57,229 nucleotides of DNA from IMG/VR virus record IMGVR_UViG_3300031933_000210; one strand, given 5' to 3'. Positions 883 through 55,416 of the stretch are shown one piece after another. Numbering within the stretch: position 1 is the stretch's first letter; each line of letters starts with the position of its first letter. The translations under genes were made by a program, and so were the position numbers. Source of the stretch: a virus. Under the pieces are notes generated by a model that worked only from the letters and a program-made list of their open reading frames with translations, searched no databases and was not told where the DNA came from.

Positions 883-899
883 TTCAACTGATGGTTGAA
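883..899. promoter_or_regulatory. TTCAACC-family motif, palindromic form (TTCAACTGATGGTTGAA)
   Basis: Perfect TTCAAC/GTTGAA inverted repeat, 45 nt upstream of the CDS at 944. Confidence 0.7.
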
Positions 900-2751: not shown

Positions 2752-2964
2752 ATGCCCTGTCCTGCCCCAACCCGGAACCGGATCGGTGATCTCGAATGCC
2801 CTGCATGCGGGCTTTCGTGGGAGCCCTGGGACGGTAGGCCCTACTGCAGTGGGGGTAAGCGCGAGCGTTCGCGTGAAGTGGCCGCCCGTGAGCTGGGAAA
2901 AATCCGATCAATTCTCCGGGCCACCGAAGCAACCCGCGCGCTTGACCATTCAACTATTGGTTGA
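2752..2964 (+). CDS. small hypothetical protein (CPxP...CPAC)
   Basis: GGAGG lies 6 nt upstream of the ATG at 2752. 70 aa. Confidence 0.45.
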   Translation: MPCPAPTRNRIGDLECPACGLSWEPWDGRPYCSGGKRERSREVAARELGKIRSILRATEATRALDHSTIG

Positions 2965-2986
2965 TTAGGATAGCCATCAGGTTGAT
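2949..2986 (+). promoter_or_regulatory. TTCAACC-family motif (TTCAACTATTGGTTGAT plus CCATCAGGTTGAT)
   Basis: Intergenic, upstream of the CDS at 3011. Overlaps the last codons of the preceding CDS. Confidence 0.6.
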
Positions 2987-4970: not shown

Positions 4971-5050
4971 AGGGCAGTCTCGGCAGCTCACGCTTCAGTT
5001 GCCCGAAGGTTACCGGACTGAACAATCCGGTTCACCCGATTATTGAATTG

Positions 5051-5066
5051 TCAACTGACAGTTGGA
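5051..5066. promoter_or_regulatory. degenerate TTCAACC-family palindrome (TCAACTGACAGTTGGA)
   Basis: Lies between the tail-module end and the holin-like gene. Confidence 0.4.
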
Positions 5067-21105: not shown

Positions 21106-21129
21106 GTGTGTCTACCTCGACGTTGAACA

Positions 21130-21146
21130 TGCAACTGTTGGTTGAA
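21130..21146. promoter_or_regulatory. TTCAACC-family motif, palindromic form (TGCAACTGTTGGTTGAA)
   Basis: Intergenic, upstream of the major tail gene. Confidence 0.6.
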
Positions 21147-23013: not shown

Positions 23014-23032
23014 GGAGTATTCACCTTGGAGT

Positions 23033-23061
23033 TGAAACAAAAGGCGGCGCAAGGCCGCCTT
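23033..23061 (-). terminator. Rho-independent terminator after the major capsid gene
   Basis: Stem AAGGCGGC/GCCGCCTT, loop of 5 nt, then TTTTGTTT on the minus strand. Confidence 0.75.
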
Positions 23062-24565: not shown

Positions 24566-25843
24566 TTATTTGCCCTCAATGCCATTGGCCGCGCGGAATT
24601 CCTGCATCAGGGTCTGCTGACTGGCCTGTTCGTCGTTACCGCCGCCATCGGCGCCGAGTTCGGGGTTGTTCTGACCCATTGCCTGCTCAAAGGCGCTGCC
24701 CTTGCCACCGGCATTCCCTTCGGCCTTGTCGTCCTCAGCGGGCGATGCAGCCAGAATGCCCTTCGCAGAATCAACCGACAGTTCGGTATTCAACGAAAGG
24801 TGGTTTGCCAGGGCACGACGAGTCTTGGCTTCGTCGCAGCCCATGATCCCCTGAATGCGTTCGCGCTCGGCCGTGGCACCTTCTTTCCGGCCCTCGGCGC
24901 GAGCCGCATCCAGATCAGCCTGTGCGGGTGCAGCGGCTTGTTCCGGTGTGCTCATTGTTTCTTCTCCTGCGGTTGGTGACAGTCCGCCAGAGAAGGCGGC
25001 CAGCGCTTCATCGAAGGCTCGGATTTCGTGCGCGAATCCCAGGCTTACCGCTTCCTCGGCACTGTAGGTCAGCGCTTTGGTGTCACGGACCACCTGCTCA
25101 TCGAGCGCGAGATTCCGCGCCACTGTCGATACGAAAATATTGTAGAGGCCGTCGATCCGGGCCTGCATCCGGTTTTTGGCCACATCGGACAAGGGCTCGT
25201 GTGGATTGCCATCGACCTTGTGCTCACCGGCATGGATGAAGGTGATCTTGATGCCGATCTTCTCGTTCCACCCCGACACATCCATGTGCGCAGTGACCAC
25301 GCCGACGCTACCGACGCCACCGGTACGGGTGATCGTGATCTTGTCAGCGACTGACGCCCAAGCGTATGCAGCCGAATAGGCATGCTCATTGACGAAGGCG
25401 TGGATGGGTTTCTCGCCGCGCATCGCAAAGACACGGTCGACCGCATCGAAGCAGCCGGCTACCTCGCCGCCGCCGGAGCTCAGAATCATGGCGATGCGCT
25501 GAACGCTTCCGTCGGCCATGCCGCGCTCGAACGCCTTCTGGATGTAGACGTAGCCGGTTGCCCAGTCATAAAGCTGGTAGCCGAAGTCGTGCAGCAGCAT
25601 GCCCTTGATCGGGATCAGCAGCGTACCGTCCTGGACGATGTACGGGCGGTAGCGCGCCATCCAACTGTCGGCAGCCGGCCAGAAGTCGTCATAGGCCAGG
25701 GCGACAGGTTCGCTGGAGGCGCGAGCCTCGATCGTCTTCAGCTCAGCGGATACCGAGGCGAGGCAATTGCTCATCCAGTCGGCCTTGCAGTCGCTCACCA
25801 TCACCGGTGCGTTCGCGAAGCGCGAGGCCAGCAGGTTACTCAT
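24566..25843 (-). CDS. S49-family prohead protease / scaffold (lambda gpC-like)
   Basis: SSGGGEVAGCFD...AYSAAYAWASVADKI...GGVGSVGVV matches the SppA/S49 core. Ala/Glu-rich C-terminal scaffold-like region. Confidence 0.85.
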   Translation of the reverse strand: MSNLLASRFANAPVMVSDCKADWMSNCLASVSAELKTIEARASSEPVALAYDDFWPAADSWMARYRPYIVQDGTLLIPIKGMLLHDFGYQLYDWATGYVYIQKAFERGMADGSVQRIAMILSSGGGEVAGCFDAVDRVFAMRGEKPIHAFVNEHAYSAAYAWASVADKITITRTGGVGSVGVVTAHMDVSGWNEKIGIKITFIHAGEHKVDGNPHEPLSDVAKNRMQARIDGLYNIFVSTVARNLALDEQVVRDTKALTYSAEEAVSLGFAHEIRAFDEALAAFSGGLSPTAGEETMSTPEQAAAPAQADLDAARAEGRKEGATAERERIQGIMGCDEAKTRRALANHLSLNTELSVDSAKGILAASPAEDDKAEGNAGGKGSAFEQAMGQNNPELGADGGGNDEQASQQTLMQEFRAANGIEGK

Positions 25844-30622: not shown

Positions 30623-30639
30623 ATCAACCAACGGTTGAA
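30623..30639. promoter_or_regulatory. TTCAACC-family motif, palindromic form (ATCAACCAACGGTTGAA)
   Basis: Fills the 35-nt gap between the methyltransferase stop and the terS Shine-Dalgarno sequence and ATG. Confidence 0.65.
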
Positions 30640-32423: not shown

Positions 32424-33077
32424 TCAGTGCTTGTCGGTGACCAGCTTCCAGCGATCCTCGCCCGTATAGTAGTGCGTGCCCGACTCCTTCACTTCAACGG
32501 CCAGGTAGCCGCCACGGCGCACGCCGTGTTTCTCGATGAGATCGTGAGGCATGTGAATGAAGCGTATGTCGAACGGACCTTTCGGGATTGCACCGATCAC
32601 AGCGCAACGCTCGTATTCGTTGGGAATATAGAAGCGTAACAGGCCAGCCTCCACTGTTTGCGCGGTCGCAACATGGTAATAGGTCTGGGTACCCTCGCGG
32701 ATGCTGTGAAAACTGACGAACTCAGCCAGGGGATCACCCTCGGCTGGGAAGGCGCAGGTGCCGCCATTGAGCTGCACAAGTCCCATGAAAACGTTAACTG
32801 CACCGGCCATCTGGGCGCTGTGCTGCTTACGCTCTTTCACTTCCATGTTGGGCGTGATGCCCAGCGCCAACCACGATTCGTCAACACCGAGAACCTTGGC
32901 GAGCTTACCCATCATGCTGGGGCGCGGACGCGAACCTGCGAACCACTTGCGCACGGCCTCGGCGCTCACACCCATCTCATCCTTGAGCCATGTCTGGCGG
33001 CCTTTGCCGAATGTCGGAACTCGACTGTTGCCGTCGCATGCCACCTTCAGCCGGTTGGCGAATCCTAAATCGGCCAT
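32424..33077 (-). CDS. XRE/CI-like repressor (HTH N-domain, non-peptidase C-domain)
   Basis: N-terminus FANRLKVA...MGVSAEAVRKWFAGSRPRPSMMGKLAKVLGVDESWLALG is a classic HTH_3 domain. No S24 Ser-Lys signature is seen in the C-terminal 130 aa. Confidence 0.7.
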   Translation of the reverse strand: MADLGFANRLKVACDGNSRVPTFGKGRQTWLKDEMGVSAEAVRKWFAGSRPRPSMMGKLAKVLGVDESWLALGITPNMEVKERKQHSAQMAGAVNVFMGLVQLNGGTCAFPAEGDPLAEFVSFHSIREGTQTYYHVATAQTVEAGLLRFYIPNEYERCAVIGAIPKGPFDIRFIHMPHDLIEKHGVRRGGYLAVEVKESGTHYYTGEDRWKLVTDKH

Positions 33078-34997: not shown

Positions 34998-35023
34998 GGT
35001 TGAATACTCACTAGGTGGTTGAA
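34998..35023 (-). promoter_or_regulatory. TTCAACC-family motif, 19-bp-phased direct repeat abutting the start codon
   Basis: Minus strand reads TTCAACCAcctagtgagtaTTCAACCAATG. Confidence 0.65.
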
Positions 35024-37558: not shown

Positions 37559-37584
37559 GGTTGAATACTCACCCATTGGTGGAA
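37559..37584 (-). promoter_or_regulatory. TTCAACC-family motif, 19-bp-phased direct repeat abutting the start codon
   Basis: Minus strand reads TTCCACCAatgggtgagtaTTCAACCAATG. Confidence 0.6.
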
Positions 37585-40326: not shown

Positions 40327-40343
40327 GTCAACTGTTGGTTGAA
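40327..40343. promoter_or_regulatory. TTCAACC-family motif, palindromic form (GTCAACTGTTGGTTGAA) in the divergent control region
   Basis: Lies about 85 nt upstream of the leftward operon's first ATG and 100 nt upstream of the Cro-like gene. Confidence 0.65.
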
Positions 40344-40442: not shown

Positions 40443-40715
40443 ATGGGCACACGCGACATGGACCTCGACGACATCAGCCGCTACAAGGAGCTCGGCCCTC
40501 TGCAGGACCTACTGCTGAAGGCTTGCCCGCCTGATAGCGAGGGTAAACGGAGCATTCCGGTCCTGGCCAAGCATCTCGGCTTGAGCAACCAGTACGTCTA
40601 TCGCTGGATCAAAGACAAATCGGTGCCGGCAAAGTACGTCCGCAAACTGGTTGAGATCGGCGACGGCAGAGTCTCATTCAGCGACTTCCACGATTACGTG
40701 TTCTTACGATCGTAA
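40443..40715 (+). CDS. Cro/YdaS-like HTH regulator
   Basis: IPVLAKHLGLSNQYVYRWIKDKSVPAKYV is an HTH. First gene of the rightward operon. Confidence 0.6.
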   Translation: MGTRDMDLDDISRYKELGPLQDLLLKACPPDSEGKRSIPVLAKHLGLSNQYVYRWIKDKSVPAKYVRKLVEIGDGRVSFSDFHDYVFLRS

Positions 40716-40717
40716 AA

Positions 40718-40733
40718 GCAACCATTGGTTGAA
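40718..40733. promoter_or_regulatory. TTCAACC-family motif, palindromic form (GCAACCATTGGTTGAA)
   Basis: Lies immediately after the stop of the Cro-like gene. Confidence 0.6.
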
Positions 40734-40788
40734 TCTTCATCTCGGCAACCGTATTCTGCCCTAAAACTAGGGCCAACCGAGGTGTAGC

Positions 40789-40992
40789 GTGACGCTCGAT
40801 CCGAAAACACAGCGCCTTCGCGCGCTAATGGCGCAGCACGGCGTCAGCATCGGCGACGTGGCCGCCCTCCTCTCGCGCAGCAAGAAGACGGTTCGCATGT
40901 GGCGTAGCCGCAACGAGCCGTCGATCCCTGACGCCCAGCTCGAACTCCTCGAACTCAAGCTCAGCCAACGTCGCGTGGAGAAAGTCGCATGA
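40789..40992 (+). CDS. small HTH-like hypothetical protein
   Basis: GTG start with a GAGGTG Shine-Dalgarno sequence. HGVSIGDVAALLSRSKKTVRMW. Confidence 0.5.
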   Translation: MTLDPKTQRLRALMAQHGVSIGDVAALLSRSKKTVRMWRSRNEPSIPDAQLELLELKLSQRRVEKVA

Positions 40993-44022: not shown

Positions 44023-44028
44023 AAAAAG

Positions 44029-44345
44029 AACTGGGACATTTGAGAAACTGGGACAAGAACTGGGACAAGCTGGAGCCTTAGTGCCACGCGGCTTCCAGCA
44101 ATTCTTGTCCCAGTTACGGCGTTGTCCCAGTTTCTTTCACTCTTATATATGTACGAAACACATCTATGTGACAGTGACATCACCATGCTCTCACCGGGTC
44201 ATTCTCAGCAGATGTATTCCTCTCACATATAAGACTTCAAATAACTGGGACAACTGGGACAACTGGGACAGACAGCCTTGCAGGCCAGATTTTCCGGGGG
44301 GTCGGCTTGTCCCAGTTTCTTGTCCCAGTTTATTTAAGTGGGACA
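44029..44345. repeat. iteron array, candidate replication origin
   Basis: Ten ACTGGGACA iterons: 3 direct (44029-44067), 2 inverted (44106-44132), an AT-rich 110-bp core, 3 tandem direct (44244-44270) and 2 inverted (44308-44329). One partial copy follows. Confidence 0.7.
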
Positions 44346-44626: not shown

Positions 44627-44912
44627 CGCTATCTCCCTCGGTTTTCTGAATTTCGTTGATCTGAACCAGTGCCGCATCGAGCTTTCGGTCGTTGACCTCC
44701 GTCCGGTCGGCAAGCCTGCCGAGCGCAGCATCGAGCTGCCCCATCCGATGAAGCAGCAGCTCTGCCTGCTGGCGCTGTTCACCGGCTGCCTGCAGCGCCG
44801 CAAACGCTTCATTCCGCGAAGACGCGGCATCCTCCCAGGCACCCTTGAGTTGCCAGCCGAGCCCCAACACCGCCACGGCCAGCGCGGCCGTCACCCCTAG
44901 CAACCACTTCAC
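44565..44912 (-). CDS. i-spanin (Rz-like)
   Basis: N-terminal transmembrane segment (WLLGVTAALAVAVLGLGW) followed by a coiled-coil periplasmic domain. Confidence 0.7.
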   Translation of the reverse strand: MKWLLGVTAALAVAVLGLGWQLKGAWEDAASSRNEAFAALQAAGEQRQQAELLLHRMGQLDAALGRLADRTEVNDRKLDAALVQINEIQKTEGDSDESMACLDVLVPVQLDGVLR

Positions 44913-46088: not shown

Positions 46089-46397
46089 ATGCTAATCACT
46101 GATGGACTGCGTTTCTCAGGCATTGCTGCCCGCCTTGGCGCCGCGATCGGATCGCTGATGATCGGATCGTCAGGTCGCTCGACCGGGCTGTACGGCCGGC
46201 ACACCTACATGCGACCGACCCGGCGCCAGCAGCGCGACCCGAACAACCCTCACCAGCAGGCGCGCATCCTGGCCGCCGCCGCGAAGCGGGAGCGCCGGGC
46301 CAAGAAGTTGGCCTTCTACATGCTCCACTCCACCCTCAACAACCGCGCCCACGCCGGTACCGGCCCGACTCTCAACCCGTTTCATATCGCCCGCTGA
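46089..46397 (+). CDS. hypothetical basic protein
   Basis: AGGAA Shine-Dalgarno sequence upstream of the ATG at 46089. 102 aa. Confidence 0.45.
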   Translation: MLITDGLRFSGIAARLGAAIGSLMIGSSGRSTGLYGRHTYMRPTRRQQRDPNNPHQQARILAAAAKRERRAKKLAFYMLHSTLNNRAHAGTGPTLNPFHIAR

Positions 46398-46423
46398 TTC
46401 AACCATCACCTGATTTTTCAACC
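46398..46423 (+). promoter_or_regulatory. TTCAACC-family motif, 19-bp-phased direct repeat
   Basis: TTCAACC at 46398 and 46417, upstream of the HU gene. Confidence 0.6.
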
Positions 46424-46451
46424 GAAGCACCTGCAAACCAGGAGATACACC

Positions 46452-46724
46452 ATGCCCAAGCAGAACCTGATCGACACCATCGCACTGCAGACCAACACCA
46501 GCAAAGCTGAAGCCGGCCGCATGGTCGACGCCGTACTGCACGGCCTGCAGTCTGAGCTTTCCGCCGGCAACGAAGTTCGCATCGTCGGCTTCGGCAGCTT
46601 CAGCCCAGTCACCCGCCCTGCCCGCACCGCACGCAACCCGCAGACCGGCAATCCCATGCAGCTCGCATCGAAGGTGGTTGTGAAGTTCCGCCCGGGCAAG
46701 AAGCTGCTGGAAGCGGTGAACTGA
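46452..46724 (+). CDS. hup: HU/IHF-family DNA-binding protein
   Basis: VRIVGFGSFSPVTRPARTARNPQTGNPMQLASKVVVKFRPGKKL is the canonical HU arm. Confidence 0.9.
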   Translation: MPKQNLIDTIALQTNTSKAEAGRMVDAVLHGLQSELSAGNEVRIVGFGSFSPVTRPARTARNPQTGNPMQLASKVVVKFRPGKKLLEAVN

Positions 46725-46725
46725 G

Positions 46726-46911
46726 ATGGGTCCGGAGTTCGATCACGACGAAATCGATCTGATCACCGCATTAGCCATCGCGATTGTTGCGGGCCAGCAG
46801 GCGAACACGCTGTCCGGGTCAACCAATCCGGGGGAGGTGTTCGACGTGGCGGAAGAGGTCGTCCGCGAACGCAGGCGCCGCTACTTCAGCACTCATAAGA
46901 TCGGTGACTGA
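46726..46911 (+). CDS. hypothetical protein
   Basis: 61-aa ORF, 1 nt after the HU stop, followed by a terminator. Confidence 0.45.
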   Translation: MGPEFDHDEIDLITALAIAIVAGQQANTLSGSTNPGEVFDVAEEVVRERRRRYFSTHKIGD

Positions 46912-46928
46912 AAAACCCAGAACACCAA

Positions 46929-46956
46929 GAAACCCGCTCCGGCGGGTTTTCTTTTG
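46929..46956 (+). terminator. Rho-independent terminator
   Basis: Stem AACCCGC/GCGGGTT, loop TCCG, then TTTTCTTTT. Confidence 0.8.
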
Positions 46957-46973
46957 CCCGAGATTCCTCCAGC

Positions 46974-46998
46974 GCGAATCCGGAAAAATCGGATTTCG
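46974..46998. repeat. GAATCC-N9-GGATTTC palindrome with the A/T core flipped relative to the origin copies
   Basis: GCGAATCCGGAAAAATCGGATTTCG. Compare with 43847..43870. Confidence 0.7.
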
Positions 46999-47317
46999 TG
47001 AGCCAGAGGTGCCTACGACCGAATTCTGGAAAAACCGAGCTCGCTGAAACCCTTTGTAGATCAGCAATTTACGCACGAGAGTCCTATTGCACAGGTTGAA
47101 AACCCTCGAATCCCGAGCCTCGGCGACCCCCCGGCAGCCCGGATTCCCTGGATGGGACCCAGAGCGACCACGCCAGGCCCGGCGGCGCCAGCTGGCCAGG
47201 TAGCCGCGGCGCACGAATTGCCGAATTCAGGGATTCACGAATTGCCGCATTCGGCTGATTCGCCAGGTTCCCGAACTCCGATTAATCCGGATTCAACCCG
47301 CTATCCATCCTGGCGCC

Positions 47318-47408
47318 CTGATGCCGGGCTGCTGCTGATGCCGGGCTGCTGATGCCGGGCTGCTGATCCTGGCCTTGCCGGGCTGCTGATCCTGGCCTTG
47401 CCGGGCTG
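47318..47408. repeat. compound tandem repeat (CTGATGCCGGGCTG x3, then CTGATCCTGGCCTTGCCGGGCTG x2)
   Basis: Read directly from the sequence, in non-coding DNA. Confidence 0.9.
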
Positions 47409-47423
47409 CCGCCTCCCTGCCGA

Positions 47424-47469
47424 TTCAACTTTTCGCATTTTCTTTTCAACTATCGGTTGAATCTTCAAC
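47424..47469 (+). promoter_or_regulatory. TTCAACC-family motif cluster (TTCAAC, TTCAACTATCGGTTGAA, TTCAAC)
   Basis: Half-sites at 47424, 47445, 47455 (inverted) and 47464, upstream of the CDS at 47525. Confidence 0.65.
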
Positions 47470-47524
47470 ATCACGGCGATATTATTCGCGCGTGGTTTGG
47501 ATGAATTGAAAAGGAGTCGCCGCA

Positions 47525-47788
47525 ATGCTGAATAGAACCGCTCTTATCAATCCCGCTTTCCTGGCAAAGGTCGGTCGCGCCATGCGCCGCGCTGCAATAC
47601 TTTCCGCCGGTCCCTACGCTTTCGGCCGCTTTGCCGTGCGTAACCGGAAAAATGAGCTCGCGCTAGTGGTAGTGCATCGCCGCGGCCGTTTCTCTGGCTT
47701 CGAATTCTTCGACGCTGCGGACCGTGACGTAACCGGCCAGGTTATCGGCGCGCTACGCCAGCACGGCATGCCGGAGTCCGCGCTATGA
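47525..47788 (+). CDS. hypothetical protein
   Basis: AAGGAG Shine-Dalgarno sequence at 47511. 87 aa. Confidence 0.55.
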   Translation: MLNRTALINPAFLAKVGRAMRRAAILSAGPYAFGRFAVRNRKNELALVVVHRRGRFSGFEFFDAADRDVTGQVIGALRQHGMPESAL

Positions 47789-47940
47789 CTGACCATGCTT
47801 TCCCGTGCGCCGCTTTCGCCTTTTCCTACGCTTTCCAGCAAGCGAAAGCCGGGCAAATAGTCCGATTGGGAAAGGTCGCCGGAGCCTGGCGCGTCACTGT
47901 TGCGCCCGCCGTTTCAACCGTTAGTTCTAAGTTCAACTAA
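47785..47940 (+). CDS. small hypothetical protein (51 aa)
   Basis: ATGA start/stop coupling with the upstream gene. Not in the supplied ORF track because it is under 60 aa. Confidence 0.35.
   Translation: MTDHAFPCAAFAFSYAFQQAKAGQIVRLGKVAGAWRVTVAPAVSTVSSKFN
47913..47937 (+). promoter_or_regulatory. TTCAACC-family motif, 19-bp-phased direct repeat
   Basis: TTCAACC at 47913 and TTCAAC at 47932, then AAAGGAA and the ATG at 47955. Confidence 0.6.
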
Positions 47941-47954
47941 AAGGAATCTCGAAA

Positions 47955-48713
47955 ATGTCCGATAACGCACGCGATCAAGCAAAAGCCCAACTTTCCAGCG
48001 TTCGCGCCATGGTGGCTGCGCTCAACTGCGACTATGACCGGTTGGAAGAATTGCGCGAAGAGCGGCAGCCGTTTGTTGCCGGTTGGAACATGGCCGGATA
48101 TCTGCCGGATTCGGAGCCTTGCCAGTTCGCAGAATTCACAGACGCCCGGGACCATATCGCCGAAGAGTTGCGCGAACGCGCCGAACAATGCCGGGAAGAG
48201 GCGGAAAGCCATTCCGAGACCGGCGACAAAATTGAAGAGGCGGAACAGCTGGGACGCGCGGCGCGCTTCGAAGAGGCGGCCGATAATGTGGAAACCCAGA
48301 CCGGCGCCTTTTCATTCACGCTCGACGGTTGGGCATTCTGGGTTTCCGATGCTCCAAACGGTGGACTATCCGAGGAGGACGCCGCGGAACTGGATGAGCT
48401 GGAAGCGGCAGCCGGCGATTGCGAAAGCCAGGACGATGCTCGCCAGCGCATCGAAGATGACGCGCTTTCTGTCGAGATTCGCAGCGATTGGGAAACCGTC
48501 GGCGCCAGACTTTCGGCCTCGGAATTCCGCATTCTGTTGTGTACCGGCGGACCGCACGTCGAGATAGTCGGCGACCTGGACCGTTACGGCGAACCGGAAA
48601 GCGCGCGTCTGTTGTATCAAGATTGGTTCGAAGGGAAACAGGAGTACGCATGCGACTCCGACGAAGTGGCCGACCTTATTCAATACGCCAGCGTTTTCTA
48701 TTTCGGCGAATAA
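47955..48713 (+). CDS. highly acidic hypothetical protein
   Basis: 252 aa, rich in Asp/Glu throughout. Confidence 0.65.
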   Translation: MSDNARDQAKAQLSSVRAMVAALNCDYDRLEELREERQPFVAGWNMAGYLPDSEPCQFAEFTDARDHIAEELRERAEQCREEAESHSETGDKIEEAEQLGRAARFEEAADNVETQTGAFSFTLDGWAFWVSDAPNGGLSEEDAAELDELEAAAGDCESQDDARQRIEDDALSVEIRSDWETVGARLSASEFRILLCTGGPHVEIVGDLDRYGEPESARLLYQDWFEGKQEYACDSDEVADLIQYASVFYFGE

Positions 48714-48751
48714 CCGCGCCCGCGATTTCAACCATCAGAGGAATTATCAAC
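48711..48751 (+). promoter_or_regulatory. 41-bp leader cassette containing the phased TTCAACC/ATCAAC pair and an AGAGGA Shine-Dalgarno sequence
   Basis: taaCCGCGCCCGCGATTTCAACCATCAGAGGAATTATCAAC followed directly by ATG. Near-identical to 49200..49241. Confidence 0.8.
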
Positions 48752-49000
48752 ATGACACTAGTTTTCAGCGGCAAAGCGCAAGAAAGGTGCGCCGAAATTC
48801 GCCAGTCAAGCGATGGATATAGCGTGTTCACATGGTCCGACTTCGGCGGCACTACCGGCGTGATGCAGTGGCGTGAACGCCACGCGCAGGAATATGGGCC
48901 CGCTTTCGCGTCGGCTTGCGCTTGGCTCAGAAAAGCAGGCATGACGCCGGCCACCGTTTCAACCATCAGAGGAATTATCAACAATGAAAAAGTCCGTTAA
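48752..49000 (+). CDS. hypothetical protein
   Basis: The ATG abuts the leader cassette. Its 3' end reads through the next cassette. Confidence 0.5.
   Translation: MTLVFSGKAQERCAEIRQSSDGYSVFTWSDFGGTTGVMQWRERHAQEYGPAFASACAWLRKAGMTPATVSTIRGIINNEKVR
48957..48982 (+). promoter_or_regulatory. second copy of the leader cassette core
   Basis: TTTCAACCATCAGAGGAATTATCAAC, then A and ATG. Confidence 0.8.
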
Positions 49001-49202
49001 CGCGCACATTCACCGCTTCGGCGATTCGGTCGCCCTGGCATTCATCGGCGCCGATGGCGAGACGGTTTATCTCGACGCTGATCAGGCCGAACAACTGGCC
49101 GGCGCGATCGCCGAATGTGTCGAAAGTATCCGCGCCGTTAAATTTTCGGCTTCGAACTTCGGCAGCCGGAGCATTCCGCCAACCGCTGCAGCCGCGGAAT
49201 AA
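48984..49202 (+). CDS. hypothetical protein
   Basis: 72 aa, with the ATG 1 nt after the cassette. Confidence 0.55.
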   Translation: MKKSVNAHIHRFGDSVALAFIGADGETVYLDADQAEQLAGAIAECVESIRAVKFSASNFGSRSIPPTAAAAE

Positions 49203-49241
49203 CTGCGCCCGCGATTTCAACCATCAGAGGAATTATCAACC
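49200..49241 (+). promoter_or_regulatory. third copy of the leader cassette
   Basis: taaCTGCGCCCGCGATTTCAACCATCAGAGGAATTATCAACC, then ATG. Confidence 0.8.
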
Positions 49242-49763
49242 ATGAAAACTCTTTCGCAGTTGTTCCCGCTCCCGGCTCCGGAATTCACTTTCGCCGGTTT
49301 CGCCTGGCCGCGCCGCGTTGCGATGCTCCCGCGCGGATCGATCGCCGACCGCATACAACGGCGCACGCAACCGGTAGCCGGTCCGTATTACCACGCGCCG
49401 AAGCCGGCCAGCCGCTGCAATGGCCTGGCGTTCTACCTGGCGTCCGACTTCGCGCCGGGCTTGCGCTGGCAATGGGCGGACGACGTGTGCCGCTCAATCG
49501 GTCACACAGGATGGTTCACTGATGAATTCGGCGACTCCGAGACCATCCGCGGCATTGTGTGCCGGCTGCCGAAGTCGCGCGGCTTCCTAGCCGGTTGGAG
49601 CATTGGCGAAGGTATGGCCAGCGAGCTGGACGCGACCGTATACGACGACGAAGCGGGCGCGGCGCGGGCTGCCGATTCCATGGCCGAAAGAGCTGCCGAA
49701 CATCAGCGCGAATATGAAGCCGAAGAGCGCGCGCGGCTGGAATCTGAAGAGGCGGCAGCATAA
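49242..49763 (+). CDS. hypothetical protein with an acidic coiled C-terminus
   Basis: 173-aa ORF. Confidence 0.6.
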   Translation: MKTLSQLFPLPAPEFTFAGFAWPRRVAMLPRGSIADRIQRRTQPVAGPYYHAPKPASRCNGLAFYLASDFAPGLRWQWADDVCRSIGHTGWFTDEFGDSETIRGIVCRLPKSRGFLAGWSIGEGMASELDATVYDDEAGAARAADSMAERAAEHQREYEAEERARLESEEAAA

Positions 49764-50179
49764 TGGCTAAGCAATTTTCCGATGTTTCGAGCCGCTACGG
49801 CGCACCGATGGGACGCCAGGCCGATGGCTTCCTAGAAACCGATCTGCCGCGCTTCGTCCGCCTTTATCGTGTCCGGTTGGACTCCGGCGGGTATGACGAC
49901 GGCGGCGCATATTGGGGATTAGGCGAACCGCTATGGTGCGCCGAAGATGAGGACGGCAACCGGAAATTCACGCGCGCCAGTAGTCGCGAGCGCGCCGCGC
50001 TGGTGCTCGACATCCCGGACAAGGCACTTAAGCGAAGCCTAGACGGGCGCGGCGTGCCGTATGGCCTGGCATTGCTCGACGGTCGCGCGCCTTTCCCCGG
50101 CGGCATAACGCGAGATCGGGTTATCGATTGGCTGCAGCGCTCCGGCGTGTGCACGTTCGGCCGCGAAATCAACCAATAA
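49763..50179 (+). CDS. hypothetical protein (RYGAPMGR ... GGYDDGGAYWG motif)
   Basis: TAATG coupling with the upstream gene. 138 aa. Confidence 0.6.
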   Translation: MAKQFSDVSSRYGAPMGRQADGFLETDLPRFVRLYRVRLDSGGYDDGGAYWGLGEPLWCAEDEDGNRKFTRASSRERAALVLDIPDKALKRSLDGRGVPYGLALLDGRAPFPGGITRDRVIDWLQRSGVCTFGREINQ

Positions 50180-50193
50180 GGGAATTTGCAACC
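50168..50193 (+). promoter_or_regulatory. TTCAACC-family motif, 19-bp-phased direct repeat abutting the start codon
   Basis: ATCAACC at 50168, AAGGGA, TGCAACC at 50187, then ATG. Confidence 0.6.
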
Positions 50194-50583
50194 ATGGCAC
50201 ACGCTAATTTTTTCGTTTCGAGCTCCGGCGATCTGGTGCGGCACTCAAACTGCGAAACCGTCCGCGCACGGTTCGCCTTTCAGCGGTCGGAGATTGAGAC
50301 CGGCGCCGACCTTCGCGCCACGCTCCGCGCTGGCGAGTTCACGTTTCCCGGCGGTTATCCGCTATACCTGGCGACATCCGACGGCGCCGCGCTTTGCTTC
50401 GACTGCGCCCGGGCGAACCTTCGGGAAATAACCGAGGAAATCCGCGGCAACTATTCGACCGGCTGGCGCGTGGTCGCCTCTGGCGTCAATTGGGAAGACG
50501 GCGCGCTTCGTTGCGACCATTGCGGGCACCAGATACCGGCCGCCTATGGCGACGACGACGAAAGCCAGGAGGCGCCACAATGA
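50194..50583 (+). CDS. hypothetical Cys-containing protein
   Basis: 129 aa. CFDC...CDHC pairs. Confidence 0.55.
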   Translation: MAHANFFVSSSGDLVRHSNCETVRARFAFQRSEIETGADLRATLRAGEFTFPGGYPLYLATSDGAALCFDCARANLREITEEIRGNYSTGWRVVASGVNWEDGALRCDHCGHQIPAAYGDDDESQEAPQ

Positions 50584-50969
50584 CCGCGCCACTATGGATA
50601 GCGCCAACCCTGGCGAGCCTTTCACACCGAAATATCCGGCTAGACTGCGAACCGGAGTTGATCCGGGCAATCTGGAAAGCGCGTAGCCTTGAGGAACTGG
50701 CCGCCGTTTATCCTGCTGCAGACGGCACCATTATTCCGACGTGCGGACCGTTGCCGAATCTGCGCCAGGCGAAGCGCGAAGCGGTCGACCGTGCCGCCGG
50801 CTTCCATGGCGTGGAATATCTCGGTTGGCACAAGCGCAACCGGGAGCACGTTTACTATGCGAACGCGGGCGATACATACGCGGCAACGCTGATTTTTCAA
50901 GGGCGCCGGCTATCGATCGGATGTTGGGGCGATCTGGTCGAAAGGCGATTGATTGAGGGCGCAGAATGA
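50580..50969 (+). CDS. hypothetical protein
   Basis: ATGA coupling with the upstream gene. 129 aa. Confidence 0.55.
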   Translation: MTAPLWIAPTLASLSHRNIRLDCEPELIRAIWKARSLEELAAVYPAADGTIIPTCGPLPNLRQAKREAVDRAAGFHGVEYLGWHKRNREHVYYANAGDTYAATLIFQGRRLSIGCWGDLVERRLIEGAE

Positions 50970-51178
50970 AACCGGACGAAGAGAAAACGCCCGCGGCCGT
51001 TTACGTTTACGCCGGCTTTAACTTGCTGGTCCGAACCGTTCGGCTCATCGCCTATGGCGCCGCGTTCTGGATGGCGATCAAGCCCGGCGGCAGCATCCTG
51101 GCCGCCCTACTGATGGCAATAATCGCGAGCGCGATCAAAACGCGAAGTTATGCGGAAGACTTCGACCGGTACGGATAA
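50966..51178 (+). CDS. small membrane protein
   Basis: Two hydrophobic segments. ATGA coupling. Followed by a terminator. Confidence 0.55.
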   Translation: MKPDEEKTPAAVYVYAGFNLLVRTVRLIAYGAAFWMAIKPGGSILAALLMAIIASAIKTRSYAEDFDRYG

Positions 51179-51196
51179 CCGCCAACCATCCAACCG

Positions 51197-51223
51197 AAAG
51201 CCCGGGATTGCCGGGCTTTTTTG
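51197..51223 (+). terminator. Rho-independent terminator
   Basis: Stem AGCCCGG/CCGGGCT, loop of 5 nt, T6 tract. Confidence 0.8.
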
Positions 51224-51229
51224 TGCCCG

Positions 51230-52327: not shown

Positions 52328-52364
52328 TTCAACTTGCTGGATTGATATTCAACCGTTGGTTGAA
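52328..52364 (+). promoter_or_regulatory. TTCAACC-family motif cluster (TTCAAC plus TTCAACCGTTGGTTGAA)
   Basis: Upstream of the rdgC operon. Confidence 0.65.
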
Positions 52365-52415: not shown

Positions 52416-53438
52416 GTGTCGATCAAGCTACTCAACAACGTGCTGACCTATCGGTTCACGCAACCGATTCCGCTGCACGACCTGGAGGCGCTGTCCGAGG
52501 CGCTGCAAACCAAGGCGGCGCGCAACCCGGCCAGCCAGGAACTCAGCACCATGGGCTTCATCGAGCCGCTGGGTGTCGACGATGACTACGCTGAGCCCAT
52601 CGGCGCCAAGGGCATTTTCATTGCTGCGCGCAAGTCCGAGCGGCTGCTGCCCGGCAAAGTGGTGAAGCAGAACGTCGAGGCCAAGGTCCGCGAGATCGAG
52701 AAGGATCAGGTCCGCAAGGTCTACGCGAAGGAGAAGGCTCGGATCAAGGACGAGATCGTCCAAGCCATGATGCCGCATGCCTTCGTCAGTCACAGCCGGA
52801 TCAACGCACTGATCTGCCCACCCTACGTCTTCGTCGAGACCACCAGCGCCAAGAAGGCTGAGGACCTGCTGTCCCTGCTGCGCTCAGCACTCGGCAGCCT
52901 GCCGCTGCGTCCGGTCGGCACCAAGGTCTCACCGATCGTGAGCTTCACCGAGTGGGTGAAAAACCCGGACCTGAGCGCCCCGGCGGCATTCTCCCTGGGT
53001 GAATCGTTCCAATCCCGAGGTGCTTCCGAAGAAAGCTCGACCCTGAGCGGAAAGAACGTCGACCTGAGCGAAGACGACATCGTGCAGCTGATCGAGTCCG
53101 GCCGGCGCGTCAACCAGCTGGAGCTGATCTGGGAACCCGAAAGCGGGCTTGGCCAGGAAGGGGTCCCGTTCACCGTCAACGAGATGCTGGGTATCAAGGG
53201 CATCCAGTGGCCCGAGGAGCTGCATCAGCAGATTCGCGACGACATCGGCGAGGACGAGAGCAAGGTCACCGAGGCCCGGGCCACCCTGCTGCTGGTGCAA
53301 GACCTGATGCTCAAGCTGCTGGGCGATCTGCTCGACGCACTGGGCGGCGAAGAGAAGCCGGAGGCGCTGGCGGACCTCCTCGACGGCGAGGACGAGCGCG
53401 ACGAAGAACAAGCCGAGGAAGAGGAAGACCTGCTATGA
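52416..53438 (+). CDS. rdgC: recombination-associated protein RdgC
   Basis: SAKKAEDLLSLLRSALGSLPLRP and the overall layout match E. coli RdgC as I recall it. GTG start with an AAGGGGG Shine-Dalgarno sequence. Acidic tail ...EEEEDLL. Confidence 0.75.
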   Translation: MSIKLLNNVLTYRFTQPIPLHDLEALSEALQTKAARNPASQELSTMGFIEPLGVDDDYAEPIGAKGIFIAARKSERLLPGKVVKQNVEAKVREIEKDQVRKVYAKEKARIKDEIVQAMMPHAFVSHSRINALICPPYVFVETTSAKKAEDLLSLLRSALGSLPLRPVGTKVSPIVSFTEWVKNPDLSAPAAFSLGESFQSRGASEESSTLSGKNVDLSEDDIVQLIESGRRVNQLELIWEPESGLGQEGVPFTVNEMLGIKGIQWPEELHQQIRDDIGEDESKVTEARATLLLVQDLMLKLLGDLLDALGGEEKPEALADLLDGEDERDEEQAEEEEDLL

Positions 53439-53698
53439 GCCGCATGAACATCACCAAATTCGTGGCGCGCCTGCCGCATGCTCTTCACGATGAGATCAAG
53501 GAAACCGCGCGGGCCAACCACCGCTCGATGAACAGCGAGATCATTCACCGCCTGCAGCAGCCCGTGGCCCCCGGCATGGGGATCACCCAGCTGACCCTGA
53601 ACGTGGACAGCAAGGAAGCCAGTGCCGCCCTGGAGCGCATGCTGGCAGACCTGAAGTCCGCCAATGCTGAAGCCCCGATTCTGGCAGTGGGGGCCTGA
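53435..53698 (+). CDS. Arc/MetJ-type ribbon-helix-helix protein
   Basis: FVARLPHALHDEIKETARANHRSMNSEIIHRL matches the Arc-like domain. ATGA coupling. Confidence 0.7.
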   Translation: MSRMNITKFVARLPHALHDEIKETARANHRSMNSEIIHRLQQPVAPGMGITQLTLNVDSKEASAALERMLADLKSANAEAPILAVGA

Positions 53699-53703: not shown

Positions 53704-54138
53704 GTGACCACCAAGCCCAATCCACTGACGACCCAGGCTGAGGGTAGCTACTACTCCCGCCTTCCAATCCAGCCGGTGCAGTTCAGCATGACCAACAAGC
53801 TGGATGCCTGCGCCCATTCGATCCTGAAGTACGCCACTCGTCACCGAGAGAAGAACGGCCGGGTCGATCTGGAGAAGGCCATCCACTTCATCGAGCTGCG
53901 CGAGGTGCTGGCCACCGCGGAGCACCTGGTTACCGACTGGCCGATCTCGCCGGAGGAGTATTGCCGGGCGAACAGGCTGCCGCTGATGGAGACGGCAGTG
54001 GTCATCGGGCTCGGTCTCTGGCTGCAGACCGGGCAGCGGCATTACGCGGCAGAGATGCGCGGCGTACTGGCTGAAATCATCACCCGCGACTACGAGGGTC
54101 GCGGTTTCCGCTCGCCCTCAATTTCAACCAATAGCTGA
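53704..54138 (+). CDS. DUF3310-like protein
   Basis: YY...PIQPVQF......L..C.HSILKYATRH.EKNG..DLEKAIHFIEL pattern. Confidence 0.6.
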   Translation: MTTKPNPLTTQAEGSYYSRLPIQPVQFSMTNKLDACAHSILKYATRHREKNGRVDLEKAIHFIELREVLATAEHLVTDWPISPEEYCRANRLPLMETAVVIGLGLWLQTGQRHYAAEMRGVLAEIITRDYEGRGFRSPSISTNS

Positions 54139-54148
54139 GATTTCCACC
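54123..54148 (+). promoter_or_regulatory. TTCAACC-family motif, 19-bp-phased direct repeat abutting the start codon
   Basis: TTCAACC at 54123 and TTCCACC at 54142, then the ATG at 54149. Overlaps the upstream gene's last codons. Confidence 0.6.
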
Positions 54149-54616: not shown

Positions 54617-54831
54617 TGACTCCCGCTCAGCGCGCTGCTGGCGACACCGCGGCCTTCTGCACGCTGTTCCTGACCTGGGCGCTGCTGGCGCCCGTGGTCG
54701 CGGGACCGATCCAGCCGGCCGCCGTGCCGCACAACTGCCCTTCCCCTCAAGTTCGACACGGCGTCGGCTCCGATCTGCGGAGCTATCAACGCACATTCGA
54801 CCGCTGTGCCCTTTCGAGGGTCACCCCATGA
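54616..54831 (+). CDS. small hypothetical (possibly membrane/secreted) protein
   Basis: TGATG coupling with the upstream gene. Hydrophobic N-terminus. Confidence 0.4.
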   Translation: MTPAQRAAGDTAAFCTLFLTWALLAPVVAGPIQPAAVPHNCPSPQVRHGVGSDLRSYQRTFDRCALSRVTP

Positions 54832-55175
54832 AGCATCGAGATGAGTGTGCTGCACACCCCTACGAGATGAAGCTGGGCCGGCGTATCCCCGTCGACACCA
54901 GCAAGGTAGCCGCGTACATGGCGACTCTGAAGTACGTGGACGCCCTGATGATCGATGGCACCGTCCATACCCTCAGCACGTCGCTCGTGAAGCTGGAGAA
55001 GGCCCACCCGAGCCTCGTGCGCGTTCGCCGGGACACCCTGGTGGTGAAGACCAAGGTGACCCGCATTGAGCGCATCCCGGAGAGCCGCCGCCGGAAGGTC
55101 ACGCTACAGGGCGGCTGGACCATAACGACTGCCCGGGCGAATTCGACCTGGCGAATTCGACCTGGCGACAACTGA
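54828..55175 (+). CDS. LytTR-like DNA-binding domain protein
   Basis: TSLVKLEKAHPSLVRVRRDTLVVKTKVTRIE resembles the L..le..L.p..F.RvHRS.iVN...i core. ATGA coupling. Confidence 0.4.
   Translation: MKHRDECAAHPYEMKLGRRIPVDTSKVAAYMATLKYVDALMIDGTVHTLSTSLVKLEKAHPSLVRVRRDTLVVKTKVTRIERIPESRRRKVTLQGGWTITTARANSTWRIRPGDN
55137..55168. repeat. 14-bp tandem duplication (GCGAATTCGACCTG, about 2.3 copies)
   Basis: Read directly from the sequence, at the 3' end of CDS 54828..55175. Confidence 0.9.
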
Positions 55176-55398: not shown

Positions 55399-55416
55399 TT
55401 TCAACTATTGGTTGAA
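55399..55416. promoter_or_regulatory. TTCAACC-family motif, palindromic form (TTCAACTATTGGTTGAA)
   Basis: Intergenic. Same 17-mer as at 31785. Confidence 0.7.

Follow-up and report, generated by a model that had tools for sequence, protein, structure and literature searches.

The word TTCAACC, found in the leaders of many genes of this phage, may be the DNA operator half-site of one phage-encoded regulator, used in two builds, rather than an RNA signal; judging by sequence, we give this conclusion an even chance. The best reading of the whole is a dispersed operator family with stoperator-like leaders inside operons, each of which would combine a composite operator with a ribosome-binding site. 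The window, by which we mean the entire stretch of 57,229 nucleotides that was analysed, is a temperate Casjensviridae-like phage. It encodes an integrase and an excisionase, and its relative in L109 is an integrated prophage flanked by the ordinary bacterial genes dus, transaldolase and mlaA.

One half-site in two builds

The half-site has the extended form (TA)TTCAACC(AW), 7-9 bp long. TCAACC by itself is present in 70 copies (25 expected), TATTCAAC in 15 (0.4 expected) and TTCAACCA in 20 (1.1 expected), and 31 of the 39 same-strand intergenic gaps contain the half-site. Mainly, it forms one arm of a 17-bp palindrome, TTCAAC-N5-GTTGAA (Build A), of which the window holds about 17 intergenic copies. 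Four of these lie between -35 and -10 hexamers 18 bp apart, always in the same register (876, 2942, 52342 and 55393), and two more overlap promoter-like sites, so that six of the ten sigma70-like matches in the whole window bear the palindrome. The palindromic sites discussed here are the following.

883..899, plus strand: palindrome filling the 18-bp spacer of TTGCCA...TATACT, with the excisionase gene downstream
2697-2713: palindrome-like site resembling 2949..2965
2949..2965, plus strand: palindrome in the spacer of TTGACC...TAGGAT
5031..5066, unstranded: two tandem degenerate palindromes (two mismatches each), starting at 5031 and 5050
23020..23036, minus strand: palindrome TTCAACTCCAAGGTGAA, 6 nt 5' of ATG 23013, its right arm being the Shine-Dalgarno sequence
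30623..30639, minus strand: palindrome 5' of the small terminase gene, within its leader; homology to UViG-12 is lost at the first half-site
40327..40343, unstranded: palindrome between the two gene arms, in their divergent control region, adjoining ATG 40326
52348..52364, plus strand: perfect palindrome in the spacer of TTGATA...TAACAT, with rdgC and an Arc-like gene downstream
55400..55416, plus strand: perfect palindrome in the spacer of TAGACA...TATACT

The second build is a direct repeat with a period of 19 bp. Exact matches to TCAACC-N13-TCAAC number 8, where shuffles lead one to expect 0.07. When one mismatch per 7-mer is allowed, 11 half-site pairs lie at spacing 19 (shuffle mean 0.12, maximum 2) and at most two at any other spacing from 8 to 40; together with 48727 and 48958, in both of which the second copy is ATCAACA, this gives a total of 13 sites. 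The nine direct-repeat loci listed by the sequence-only reading are all present, and additional ones are found at 21146 (minus) and 47445 (plus), with a degenerate one near 27808 (minus).

46398..46423, plus strand: direct-repeat site 28 nt 5' of ATG 46452, the start of a gene for an HU-like DNA-binding protein
47445..47470, plus strand: perfect palindrome TTCAACTATCGGTTGAA in a promoter-like region (TTGAAT-17-TATTAT), with a third half-site at +19
47913..47938, plus strand: direct-repeat site at the left border of a hypervariable gene slot
48727..48752, plus strand: leader of cassette 1 (TTCAACC ATC AGAGGAA TT ATCAACA), overlapping ATG 48752 of a 68-aa ORF
48958..48983, plus strand: leader of cassette 2, abutting ATG 48984 of a 72-aa ORF
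49216..49241, plus strand: leader of cassette 3, preceding ATG 49242 of a 173-aa gene (phrog_33651)
50168..50193, plus strand: direct-repeat leader (ATCAACC AAT AAGGGAA TT TGCAACC) preceding ATG 50194
54123..54148, plus strand: direct-repeat leader preceding ATG 54149 of a MazG-like pyrophosphatase
34998..35023, minus strand: direct-repeat leader preceding ATG 34996 of a VRR-NUC-like endonuclease
37559..37584, minus strand: direct-repeat leader immediately 3' of a canonical intrinsic terminator
21121..21146, minus strand: good palindrome with a third half-site, 17 nt 5' of ATG 21105
24770..24795, plus strand: direct-repeat site within the S49 protease gene, antisense to it and kept in UViG-38

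As the sequence-only reading stated, the second copy ends 0-1 nt 5' of the ATG in seven of its nine loci (48752, 48984, 49242, 50194, 54149, 34996 and 37557), and in these seven a purine-rich Shine-Dalgarno-like stretch does lie between the copies. In the remaining two the second copy ends 28 nt (46452) and 16 nt (47955) 5' of the ATG, and the purine-rich stretch follows it instead, so that the HU-like gene has its own Shine-Dalgarno sequence 3' of the site. Second copies are imperfect at several loci (ATCAACA, TGCAACC, TTCCACC, TTCAACT). The three tandem cassettes were described correctly as near-identical: a 25-mer is the same in all three, and two are alike over about 41 nt, the upstream stop codon included. 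Because this near-identity extends to bases outside the half-sites, it points to recent copying and is not independent evidence of function. The start codon of the HNH gene downstream of 37559-37584 is ATG 37557 rather than the GTG at 37572, and the 258-aa gene at 20329-21105, judged solely by its position, probably encodes the major tail protein. At 0-30 nt from the ATG, the sites are too near it to serve as upstream activators.

Closer inspection relates the two builds. Build B consists of the palindrome with a relaxed right arm, which is often the Shine-Dalgarno sequence, followed by 2 bp and a third half-site. The relaxed arm still agrees with rGTTGAA at 4.6 of 7 positions, where the background gives 1.9 (P < 5e-5), and a search for a fourth arm in Build B found none. 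The tandem palindromes at 5031 and 5050 are likewise 19 bp apart, so that the period can be understood as 17 bp plus 2 bp. The strand specificity claimed for the direct repeats holds for 11 of the 13 sites and is not absolute, since 24770 and 37072, both on the plus strand, lie antisense inside genes. We attribute the bias to the ribosome-binding site, which must stay on the coding strand: the relaxed arm doubles as Shine-Dalgarno sequence, and the 9-nt half-site TTCAACCAT supplies the AT of the ATG.

Conservation and gene junctions among relatives

At orthologous sites of UViG-38, UViG-12 and L109, differences from the window affect about 38% of centre positions but about 2% of arm positions, a hand count made on sites retrieved by arm search and therefore subject to some ascertainment bias. 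Compensatory arm changes were not seen at these sites. Fixed arms and changing centres fit base-specific contacts by a protein rather than a hairpin. Build B is kept in UViG-12 at the HU-like, VRR-NUC-like and DNA polymerase leaders despite different interval sequences, and at the VRR-NUC-like leader the 19-bp spacing itself is preserved. At 47913 the half-sites are kept in UViG-38 and UViG-12, and the gene downstream is different in all three genomes. The leader of cassette 3 is kept in both of these relatives and missing 5' of the gene's distant homologs; that of cassette 2 is missing from both, where homology begins 5 nt 5' of the ATG.

The proposal that the leader is a portable cassette found at breakpoints of gene content stands in part. 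Comparison with five relatives places several insertion or replacement junctions at or inside leaders, and near-identical cassettes are present in a phage whose DNA is otherwise unrelated. Leaders occupy most short intergenic gaps, however, so that this association cannot be told apart from the location of junctions at gene boundaries, and any causal part in recombination is conjectural. Junctions coincide with half-site edges at 30633 (UViG-12), 54123 (UViG-38), 54128 (L110) and 48979 (both UViGs); at the MazG-like leader, homology is lost at the first base in one relative (UViG-38) and just past the first half-site in the other (L110). Five to six of about 14 junctions are near the motif, which is close to expectation if the motif stands at an estimated 30% of gene boundaries, and in the relatives compared junctions are not enriched at cassettes beyond gene boundaries generally. 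The HNH gene (37006-37557) was not inserted by means of a cassette; it took over the pre-existing leader of the DNA polymerase gene, which the same leader precedes in relatives.

Alternative roles of the leaders

The sequence-only reading favoured an RNA-level or translation-initiation signal, for which we found no positive support; the half-site is mostly an arm of a DNA palindrome. In this version the sense copies would act in the mRNA, as binding sites for a translational regulator (T4 RegA binds near many start codons) or as an unstructured, A/U-rich standby or enhancer region, which we consider decidedly unlikely. The sense orientation of 11 of the 13 direct-repeat sites, the 36 sense against 20 antisense extra half-sites within gaps, and the seven sites that abut an ATG all speak for it. 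So do the AT-richness of the leaders in a genome of about 61% GC and their lack of structure (z-scores of +1 to +2.2 in 5 of 10 folds), both of which would favour ribosome access, and the similarly placed start-associated sequences of cluster K mycobacteriophages, whose function is unknown (PMC3203893). However, the word also occurs on both strands and as palindromes within promoter spacers, and as these spacers are not transcribed as a unit they count against an RNA signal, as does the persistence of a degenerate right arm within the direct-repeat leaders. Two direct-repeat sites are intragenic and antisense, and three lie upstream of a separate Shine-Dalgarno sequence, so that the distance to the ATG is not fixed. 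The further suggestion of a structured leader is not borne out: folding revealed no structure common to the leaders, five of ten folded worse than their own shuffles, and covariation is absent. Rfam yielded no match at gathering score in the window, with a single chance-level match in 46300-50400, and the proteins scanned included none recognisable as RNA-binding.

It is also conceivable, though unlikely, that Build B sites are non-canonical promoters that need a phage factor, with transcription starting at or just after the third half-site; combined with the hairpins upstream they would be terminator-promoter cassettes like those of T4-type phages. This predicts leaderless mRNAs at the ATG-abutting sites and short-leader mRNAs at 46452, 47955 and 21105. 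The first half-site of the DNA polymerase leader contains the end of a canonical terminator that is kept in three phages; another terminator, which follows the major capsid gene, immediately precedes the palindrome at 23020; and GC-rich hairpins or a GCGCCCGC box lie 5' of many Build B sites, including those on contig CAACVE. The six nucleotides that precede TCAACC are often GAnnnT, which has the two key -10 positions. With it, +1 would fall on the first base of the ATG, or 16-28 nt 5' of the three genes with their own Shine-Dalgarno sequence. A LytTR protein, of activator type, is encoded as well. On the other hand, Build B has no -35 element, the corresponding position being GC-rich, and in the register of Build A the sequence at its -10 slot (TATTCA, TTATCA or TTTGCA) is without the invariant T at the end. 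The right arm and the third half-site already explain the GA and T of GAnnnT. A Shine-Dalgarno-like stretch, for which leaderless mRNAs would have no use, is retained 9-11 nt from the ATG in seven leaders; LytTR sites, with their period of 20-22 bp, usually lie 4-11 bp 5' of the -35 element (PMC6193735); and internal promoters at so many late genes would be unexpected.

Finally, the cassettes might play no part in regulation: they would be scars of recombination, or short homology patches, that were copied together with accessory genes and kept because they work as ribosome-binding sites. The coincidence of junctions with half-site edges, the near-identity of the three cassettes, and the joint occurrence of a cassette and its homologous upstream gene in an otherwise dissimilar phage contig are in line with this idea. 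The same is true of the window-specific insertion of a C5 methylase gene (30642-31727), whose downstream end is the palindrome at 30623-30639: the insertion brings its own downstream leader, joined at ATGGC. Yet orthologous leaders keep their half-sites even where the bases between them have diverged, promoter palindromes contain the same word, some junctions fall at plain stop-start overlaps that lack the motif (49765 and 54616), and the number of junctions near the motif is about what its frequency predicts. We regard the scar explanation as highly improbable.

A proposed operator system and its known counterparts

We return to the operator reading, with its half-site common to promoter palindromes and intra-operon leaders. 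A precedent is the L5 repressor, for which one sequence serves as promoter operator and as oriented intergenic stoperators (PMC9283540). In our model, Build A fills the -35/-10 spacer at several promoters, where the bound protein would control initiation. Build B would pack an operator into the 25-40 bp between operon genes: the 3' end of its third half-site (CCAT) runs into the ATG, and its relaxed right arm seems often to have turned into a Shine-Dalgarno sequence. A protein at such a site would operate within the transcription unit, either by blocking the elongating polymerase, as at mycobacteriophage stoperators, or by occluding the start region. Because many genes share the leader, it could also be a short homology patch for joining gene modules. 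The model does not sit easily with the 19-bp offset of the third half-site, which is not a whole number of helical turns, nor with a lone half-site beside a weak arm, an unusual target for a dimer; and the strong conserved terminator 5' of the DNA polymerase leader is easier to explain if that leader re-starts transcription. A more far-reaching version, which we think improbable, has one regulator's half-site in the leaders of a dozen genes, such that a single bound protein stops transcription of the operon and covers the translation start, and the leader doubles as a swap joint for promoterless modules exchanged between phages. This would resemble an integron array, driven by short homology and without a dedicated recombinase.

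Five proteins are equally placed candidates for the binder.

53435..53698, plus strand: Arc-like ribbon-helix-helix protein, candidate binder
54828..55175, plus strand: stand-alone LytTR-domain protein of 115 aa (PF04397, E = 1e-5), candidate binder from a family that binds direct repeats
32424..33077, minus strand: 217-aa protein with an N-terminal HTH_3 domain (CI-like), candidate binder
40443..40992, plus strand: two small helix-turn-helix proteins (Cro/Xre-like) with a palindrome beside each, candidate binders

The 181-bp gap preceding the CI-like gene holds many copies of the motif. The beta-strand of the Arc-like protein and the recognition helix of the CI-like protein are identical in UViG-12, where the motif is kept; the LytTR protein has homologs with a precomputed PF04397 match in relatives; and Phobos is without motif, LytTR protein and CI-like protein.

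To our knowledge, dispersed regulator sites inside operons are well documented in only a few phages, such as L5 and P1. The start-codon-associated repeats of mycobacteriophages are still unexplained after more than 10 years. Here, an operator form at promoters and a start-associated form are combined as two builds of one half-site, which offers a concrete and testable link between operators and start-associated sequences. The phage is also a compact case for studying how a shared leader may let accessory genes be exchanged, the examples being a methylase, a homing endonuclease and the exchange of a dUTPase for a MazG-like enzyme.

In cluster K mycobacteriophages, the start-associated sequences (SAS) and their extended form (ESAS) include the ribosome-binding site just 5' of the start codons of some non-structural genes, nearly all in one orientation; the ESAS is an imperfect 17-bp inverted repeat with its left arm nearer the consensus, sometimes ending at the start codon, and the function of both is still unknown (PMC3203893, PMC12699233). 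The analogy is confined to the position at the start codon and the ribosome-binding site that is included. The 13-bp SAS consensus, GGGATAGGAGCCC, a few bp 5' of start codons, is a different sequence (PMC12699233), host phylum and phage family differ, and no promoter-spacer palindrome has been reported for SAS, whereas here promoters and leaders share the repeat unit. ESAS inverted repeats lie 5' of the SAS and have a variable spacer; the 17-bp dyad here, also with the better left arm, has 6-bp arms around a fixed 5-bp centre instead of a pair of 17-bp arms. The PeSL (promoter-early stem-loop) cassettes of T4-type phages begin at the upstream stop codon and reach as far as the Shine-Dalgarno sequence and start codon, often with a dyad between -35 and -10, and are concentrated beside accessory ORFs and at insertion, deletion or replacement junctions between close relatives (PMC2839356, PMC4122927). 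Composite stop-to-start cassettes beside accessory ORFs and a dyad between -35 and -10 are found here too, and of the junctions with relatives several lie at cassettes and others at plain overlaps. However, PeSLs carry a full strong sigma70 promoter, whereas Build B has neither -35 nor -10 and only four to six Build A sites are promoter-borne. Their hairpin is a stable G/C-rich terminator, while the TTCAAC dyad would form a weak 6-bp A/T-rich hairpin at most and keeps its arms in sequence, not merely in pairing; the hairpins 5' of our sites are canonical terminators before 37584 and 23020 and otherwise weak or remnants of coding sequence.

The stoperators of L5 (cluster A mycobacteriophages, gp71 repressor) come from a temperate phage as well, with one sequence at promoters and at many short intergenic sites of both arms, oriented by the direction of transcription; they are single asymmetric 13-mers bound by a two-domain monomer, in contrast to the dyad, or dyad with extra half-site, seen here (PMC9283540). 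Pfam and PHROG scans recognised no gp71-like protein among the proteins scanned, and the arrest of elongating RNA polymerase, the action of the L5 repressor, is one that we only infer for our phage. LytTR sites (AgrA, HdrR, BrsR) are likewise pairs of direct repeats of about 9 bp (PMC6193735, PMC4227749), and the window encodes a LytTR protein that stands alone. Their repeats are 11-13 bp apart (period 20-22), compared with 10 bp between 9-mers (period 19) here (PMC6193735). They are activating and lie 4-11 bp 5' of the -35 element, whereas in seven of our sites the second repeat abuts the ATG, and they are direct repeats, whereas our word forms inverted repeats too. In the Arc and Mnt operators of phage P22, two dimers bind two subsites about one helical turn apart. 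We know of no sequence relation between these operators and ours. Ribbon-helix-helix proteins of other systems accept both direct and inverted arrangements of subsites, and an Arc-like protein, a candidate binder, is encoded in the window.

Palindromes and phased direct repeats

When every TTCAAC in the window is listed, its commonest context is the palindrome TTCAAC-N5-GTTGAA, with 28 matches at no more than two mismatches, about 17 of them intergenic. The half-site, a TTCAACC word, in fact extends over about 9 nt: the window has 15 copies of TATTCAAC (0.4 expected) and 20 of TTCAACCA (1.1 expected). Six of the ten sigma70-like promoter matches in the window overlap a palindrome. At four promoters, the palindrome fills the 18-bp spacer between the hexamers, a classic operator location, in one identical register.

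Promoters with the palindrome in the spacer
876: TTGCCA-a-[17]-TATACT
2942: TTGACC-a-[17]-TAGGAT
52342: TTGATA-[17]-tTAACAT
55393: TAGACA-t-[17]-TATACT

All nine loci at which the sequence-only reading had seen two half-sites phased by 19 bp were found again in place. TCAACC-N13-TCAAC occurs 8 times where 0.07 are expected; with one mismatch allowed per 7-mer and start-to-start distances of 8-40 bp considered, 11 pairs are spaced by 19 bp, against at most two at any other distance and 0.12 in shuffles. Adding 48727 and 48958 gives 13 direct-repeat sites in total. The claimed sense-strand specificity holds for 11 of the 13, which have the same orientation as the genes around them, but not for the two that run antisense within genes, at 24770-24795 (+) and 37072-37097 (+). 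These two could be antisense promoters, operators or chance; the former is conserved in UViG-38, a relative. Seven second copies do stop 0-1 nt before an ATG, and the three tandem leader cassettes (cassettes 1-3, before ATG 48752, 48984 and 49242) are near-identical as described, with a 25-mer common to all three and, in two of them, about 41 nt in common that take in the preceding stop codon.

Positions 11-17 of the 13 sites match the right arm of the palindrome, rGTTGAA, at 4.6 of 7 positions against a background of 1.9 (P < 5e-5). A direct-repeat site is therefore a left arm, a 3-nt centre, a relaxed right arm, 2 bp (mostly TA or TT) and a third half-site, and the 19-bp period is 17 + 2. 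The relaxed arms (AGAGGAA, AAGGGAA, GGGTGAG, AGCTGAG and similar) are frequently a Shine-Dalgarno sequence. The same 19-bp offset separates two tandem degenerate palindromes (5031 and 5050), each with two mismatches. A second full palindrome spanning the ATG was rejected, since no fourth arm follows the ATG.

Since the half-site consensus has CCA(T/A) at its 3' end, a half-site set against a gene provides the AT of the ATG, and the apparent fusion to the start codon needs no start-codon signal. Similarly, the strand bias follows because the relaxed arm can be a ribosome-binding site in one orientation only. The Shine-Dalgarno sequence lies 9-11 nt from the ATG in direct-repeat leaders, compared with 5-9 nt where genes of this phage lack the motif, which is the distance expected if a 9-bp half-site is wedged in.

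Most sense leaders also have a GC-rich box, GCGCCCGCnnT, directly 5' of the first half-site, where the promoter form has its -35 hexamer. In the contig CAACVE010000001.1 (CAACVE), this box forms the 3' side of a 6-bp hairpin whose loop contains the stop codon.

GC-rich boxes
48716-48726, 49205-49215 and 47902-47912: window
4890-4900: CAACVE (L005)

Of the 39 same-strand intergenic gaps of at least 10 nt on our approximate gene map, 31 contain at least one half-site, including most of those in the replication and structural operon (37584, 35023, 33154, 32366, 31785, 30623, about 27808, 23020, 21130, 10621 and 5031/5050). The palindromes lie 0 to about 57 nt from the ATG, and the sites are too near the start codons to be upstream activator sites of the adjacent gene.

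The phage and its relatives

The window (about 57 kb, about 61% GC) has minus-strand genes from about 40326 down to about 3900 and plus-strand genes from 40443 to the end. Identified proteins are a lambda-type large terminase, portal, S49 protease, major capsid protein, DUF2800 nuclease, family A-like DNA polymerase region, SNF2 helicase, primase with DUF5906, RdgC, a tyrosine integrase (1196-2437) and an excisionase (944-1219). Large-terminase identity is 68% with Phobos, PspYZU01 and Ppu-503 and 64% with Achromobacter phage AchV4, all Casjensviridae; a megablast of 10 kb against GenBank phages gave no nucleotide-level match. The phage is temperate, since a related element in a Logan assembly (L109) adjoins bacterial genes: its integrase/excisionase prophage end (L109 4204-5888, equivalent to window 875-2559) abuts dus, transaldolase, STAS, PilZ, MlaA and QueF. 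Homology stops near window position 2559, which places a putative attP at about 2540-2560.

Three further features stand in the plus-strand arm. A spanin pair (Rz/Rz1-like, Pfam LysC) lies at 44330-44912 (-), within the early part. The non-coding stretch 43846-44347, just 3' of the primase gene, contains four repeats of about 32 nt (GAATCCnGATTTTTCGGATTTC) along with at least 11 copies of AACTGGGACAA, some in each orientation, and resembles an iteron-type replication origin. The ORF 50966-51178 is followed, at 51190-51225, by a canonical intrinsic terminator (AAAGCCCGG-GATTG-CCGGGCTTTTTT).

The motif is present in five relatives.

Relatives carrying the motif
UViG_3300011216_000038 (UViG-38; L003, L004, L007): IMG/VR contig, about 94% nucleotide identity
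UViG_3300011586_000012 (UViG-12; L008, L022): about 80% nucleotide identity
L109: prophage fragment
L110: contig
CAACVE010000001.1 (L005): ENA contig, only the cassette shared with the window at the DNA level

At orthologous palindromes the arms are constant and the centres vary: by our count, about 38% of centre positions differ, compared with about 2% of arm positions. Site 44958, for example, reads TTCAAC-TACTG-GTTGAC in the window, with the centre -TAATG- in UViG-38 and -TGTTT- in UViG-12. No compensating arm changes were seen at these palindromes. Judged from these alignments, fixed arms with changing centres would be the signature of base-specific protein contacts and not of a hairpin; the stem of the dyad, in RNA or DNA, would be weak, with 6 A/T-rich base pairs. 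Direct-repeat leaders are likewise retained at orthologous genes despite different interval sequences.

Leaders of orthologous genes in UViG-12
VRR-NUC-like gene: TTCAAC-AACTTCAGGAG-TATTCAACC
HU-like gene: TTCAAC-TTTCC-GTTGTA-AA-TACAACG
DNA polymerase gene: TTCCACC-AAA-GGATGAG-CA-TGCAACC

Distant homologs of the 173-aa gene behind cassette 3, in motif-free phages, have no cassette, so that the cassette belongs to the phage lineage and not to the gene. The TTCAAC motif is absent from Phobos (L001/L002), and an analogous motif there was rejected, the only candidate being an unrelated intergenic palindrome, GGTCTAGACC, with six copies (14075, 17991, 42440, 45647, 46670 and 50887). Searches of GTDB genomes with the cassette pattern, and then with the DUF2800 protein, found nothing; a pattern match in contig L006 looks like chance.

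Leaders at gene-content junctions

The sequence-only reading had offered, as its alternative, a portable initiation cassette at which genes are gained and lost. Junctions with relatives do often fall at leaders. The C5 methylase gene 30642-31727, present in the window and UViG-12 and absent from UViG-38, lies in an insertion region (30607-31722) that spans from just after one ATGGC to the next ATGGC. The insert carries its own downstream leader (palindrome 30623, Shine-Dalgarno sequence and ATG), which restarts the small terminase gene, and UViG-12 homology ends exactly after TTCAACC at 30633. A variable slot, bounded on the left by the conserved direct-repeat site 47913 and on the right 5 nt before ATG 48984, holds three different gene sets in three genomes, and cassettes 1 and 2 are found only in the window among the three genomes compared. 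At leader 54123, homology is lost at the first base of the site in UViG-38 and right after the first TTCAAC in L110, which has a dUTPase in place of the MazG-like gene; in L109 a further gene, for a PAPS reductase, lies upstream, and only its last ~30 nt remain in the window. CAACVE has three cassettes, one of them 3' of a 53%-identical homolog of window gene 47955-48713.

Other junctions lack the motif, such as the plain stop-start overlaps at 49765 and 54616. UViG-38 and UViG-12 lack the HNH homing-endonuclease gene 37006-37557 (insert 36972-37543), which entered the DNA polymerase gene after about codon 5 and inherited the polymerase's leader; the HNH protein keeps the first polymerase residues (MKVKK vs MKEKK), and the insertion provides a new polymerase N-terminus overlapping the HNH stop codon. 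By our estimate about 30% of gene boundaries bear the motif, so that 5-6 of about 14 junctions near a motif is close to expectation. The motif-free junctions, the inherited leader and this count speak against a causal role in gene exchange; the portable cassette is therefore partly supported and compatible with the data, but not demonstrated.

A second endonuclease gene (HNH_3 plus AP2 domain, 56027-56566), in a window-specific insertion relative to UViG-38 (56007-56559), has no TTCAAC leader.

Operator, promoter or RNA signal

The sequence-only reading had preferred a function in RNA or translation initiation, which our results leave unsupported and improbable. Ten leaders, folded with about 100 nt of context each, have no structure in common, five of them fold worse than their own shuffles (z-scores of +1 to +2.2), and an Rfam search returned no match, so that a structured RNA leader was rejected. 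A 12-bp long-range helix of 49196-49207 with 49255-49266 (z = -2.5) encloses cassette 3 (49216) and the start of the 173-aa gene; it was discarded, as one pair is broken by a synonymous T-to-C change in UViG-38. The leaders are thus open and AT-rich, which favours ribosome access and is not specific evidence of an RNA signal. UUCAACC could pair with GGUUGGA, a stretch close to the 16S rRNA 3' end; this pairing was rejected, as the target lies within helix 45 and the first copy is upstream of the Shine-Dalgarno sequence.

Several other identities were tried and rejected. By eye, a sigma54 pattern is absent from the direct-repeat form and the IHF/HU consensus WATCAANNNNTTR does not fit; nor do the host LexA, FNR and ArgR boxes. 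GTTGAAT fits GTTRRRY, as an integron attC or tyrosine-recombinase core site would, but this was taken as a coincidence given the 3-5-bp dyad centre and the location in promoter spacers.

The direct-repeat sites could instead be non-canonical promoters that depend on a phage factor and restart transcription at the leader. Three phages have kept a canonical terminator, GGGCGC-TTCG-GCGCCC followed by seven T, that leads directly into the DNA polymerase leader, and another lies 5' of site 23020; if both are efficient, transcription must restart at the leader. Taking the first T of the third half-site as -7 would put +1 on the A of the ATG. However, the direct-repeat form has no -35 element and no sigma70 hexamers in any workable register, its -10 slot in the register of the palindromic promoters lacks the invariant final T, and its leaders retain Shine-Dalgarno-like stretches. 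We consider such promoters unlikely.

The window encodes several candidate binders.

Candidate DNA-binding proteins
53435-53698: Arc-like ribbon-helix-helix protein (Pfam Arc, E = 4e-14)
54828-55175: stand-alone LytTR domain protein, 115 aa
32424-33077: 217-aa CI-like protein with N-terminal HTH_3 domain, behind a 181-bp gap full of motif copies
40443-40992: two small Cro/Xre-like proteins, adjoining palindromes
46452-46724: HU-like protein

LytTR regulators bind 9-bp direct repeats with a period of 20-22 bp, upstream of the -35 element (PMC6193735, PMC4227749), but neither this period nor this position holds in the window; LytTR homologs occur in very close relatives only. UViG-12, which retains the motif, has the same Arc-like beta-strand (ITKFVARLP) and the same CI-like recognition helix (EAVRKWFAG) as the window, so that both proteins stay in contention. 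Phobos lacks LytTR and the CI-like protein along with the motif, and has homologs of the two small helix-turn-helix proteins. PDB sequence searches with the helix-turn-helix proteins and a 255-aa protein were uninformative about the binder.

The best-supported reading, to which we give about even odds, is a dispersed family of putative operators with a stoperator-like variant in which the operator is built into the leader. For the repressor of mycobacteriophage L5, a single sequence is the operator at promoters and recurs, oriented, as "stoperators" in the short spaces between genes; inversion of such a site abolishes repression (PMC9283540). The half-sites in the window are distributed as described for the L5 repressor sites. 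Stoperators, SAS/ESAS and PeSLs are kinds already known, and the system is a variant of these and not a new category.
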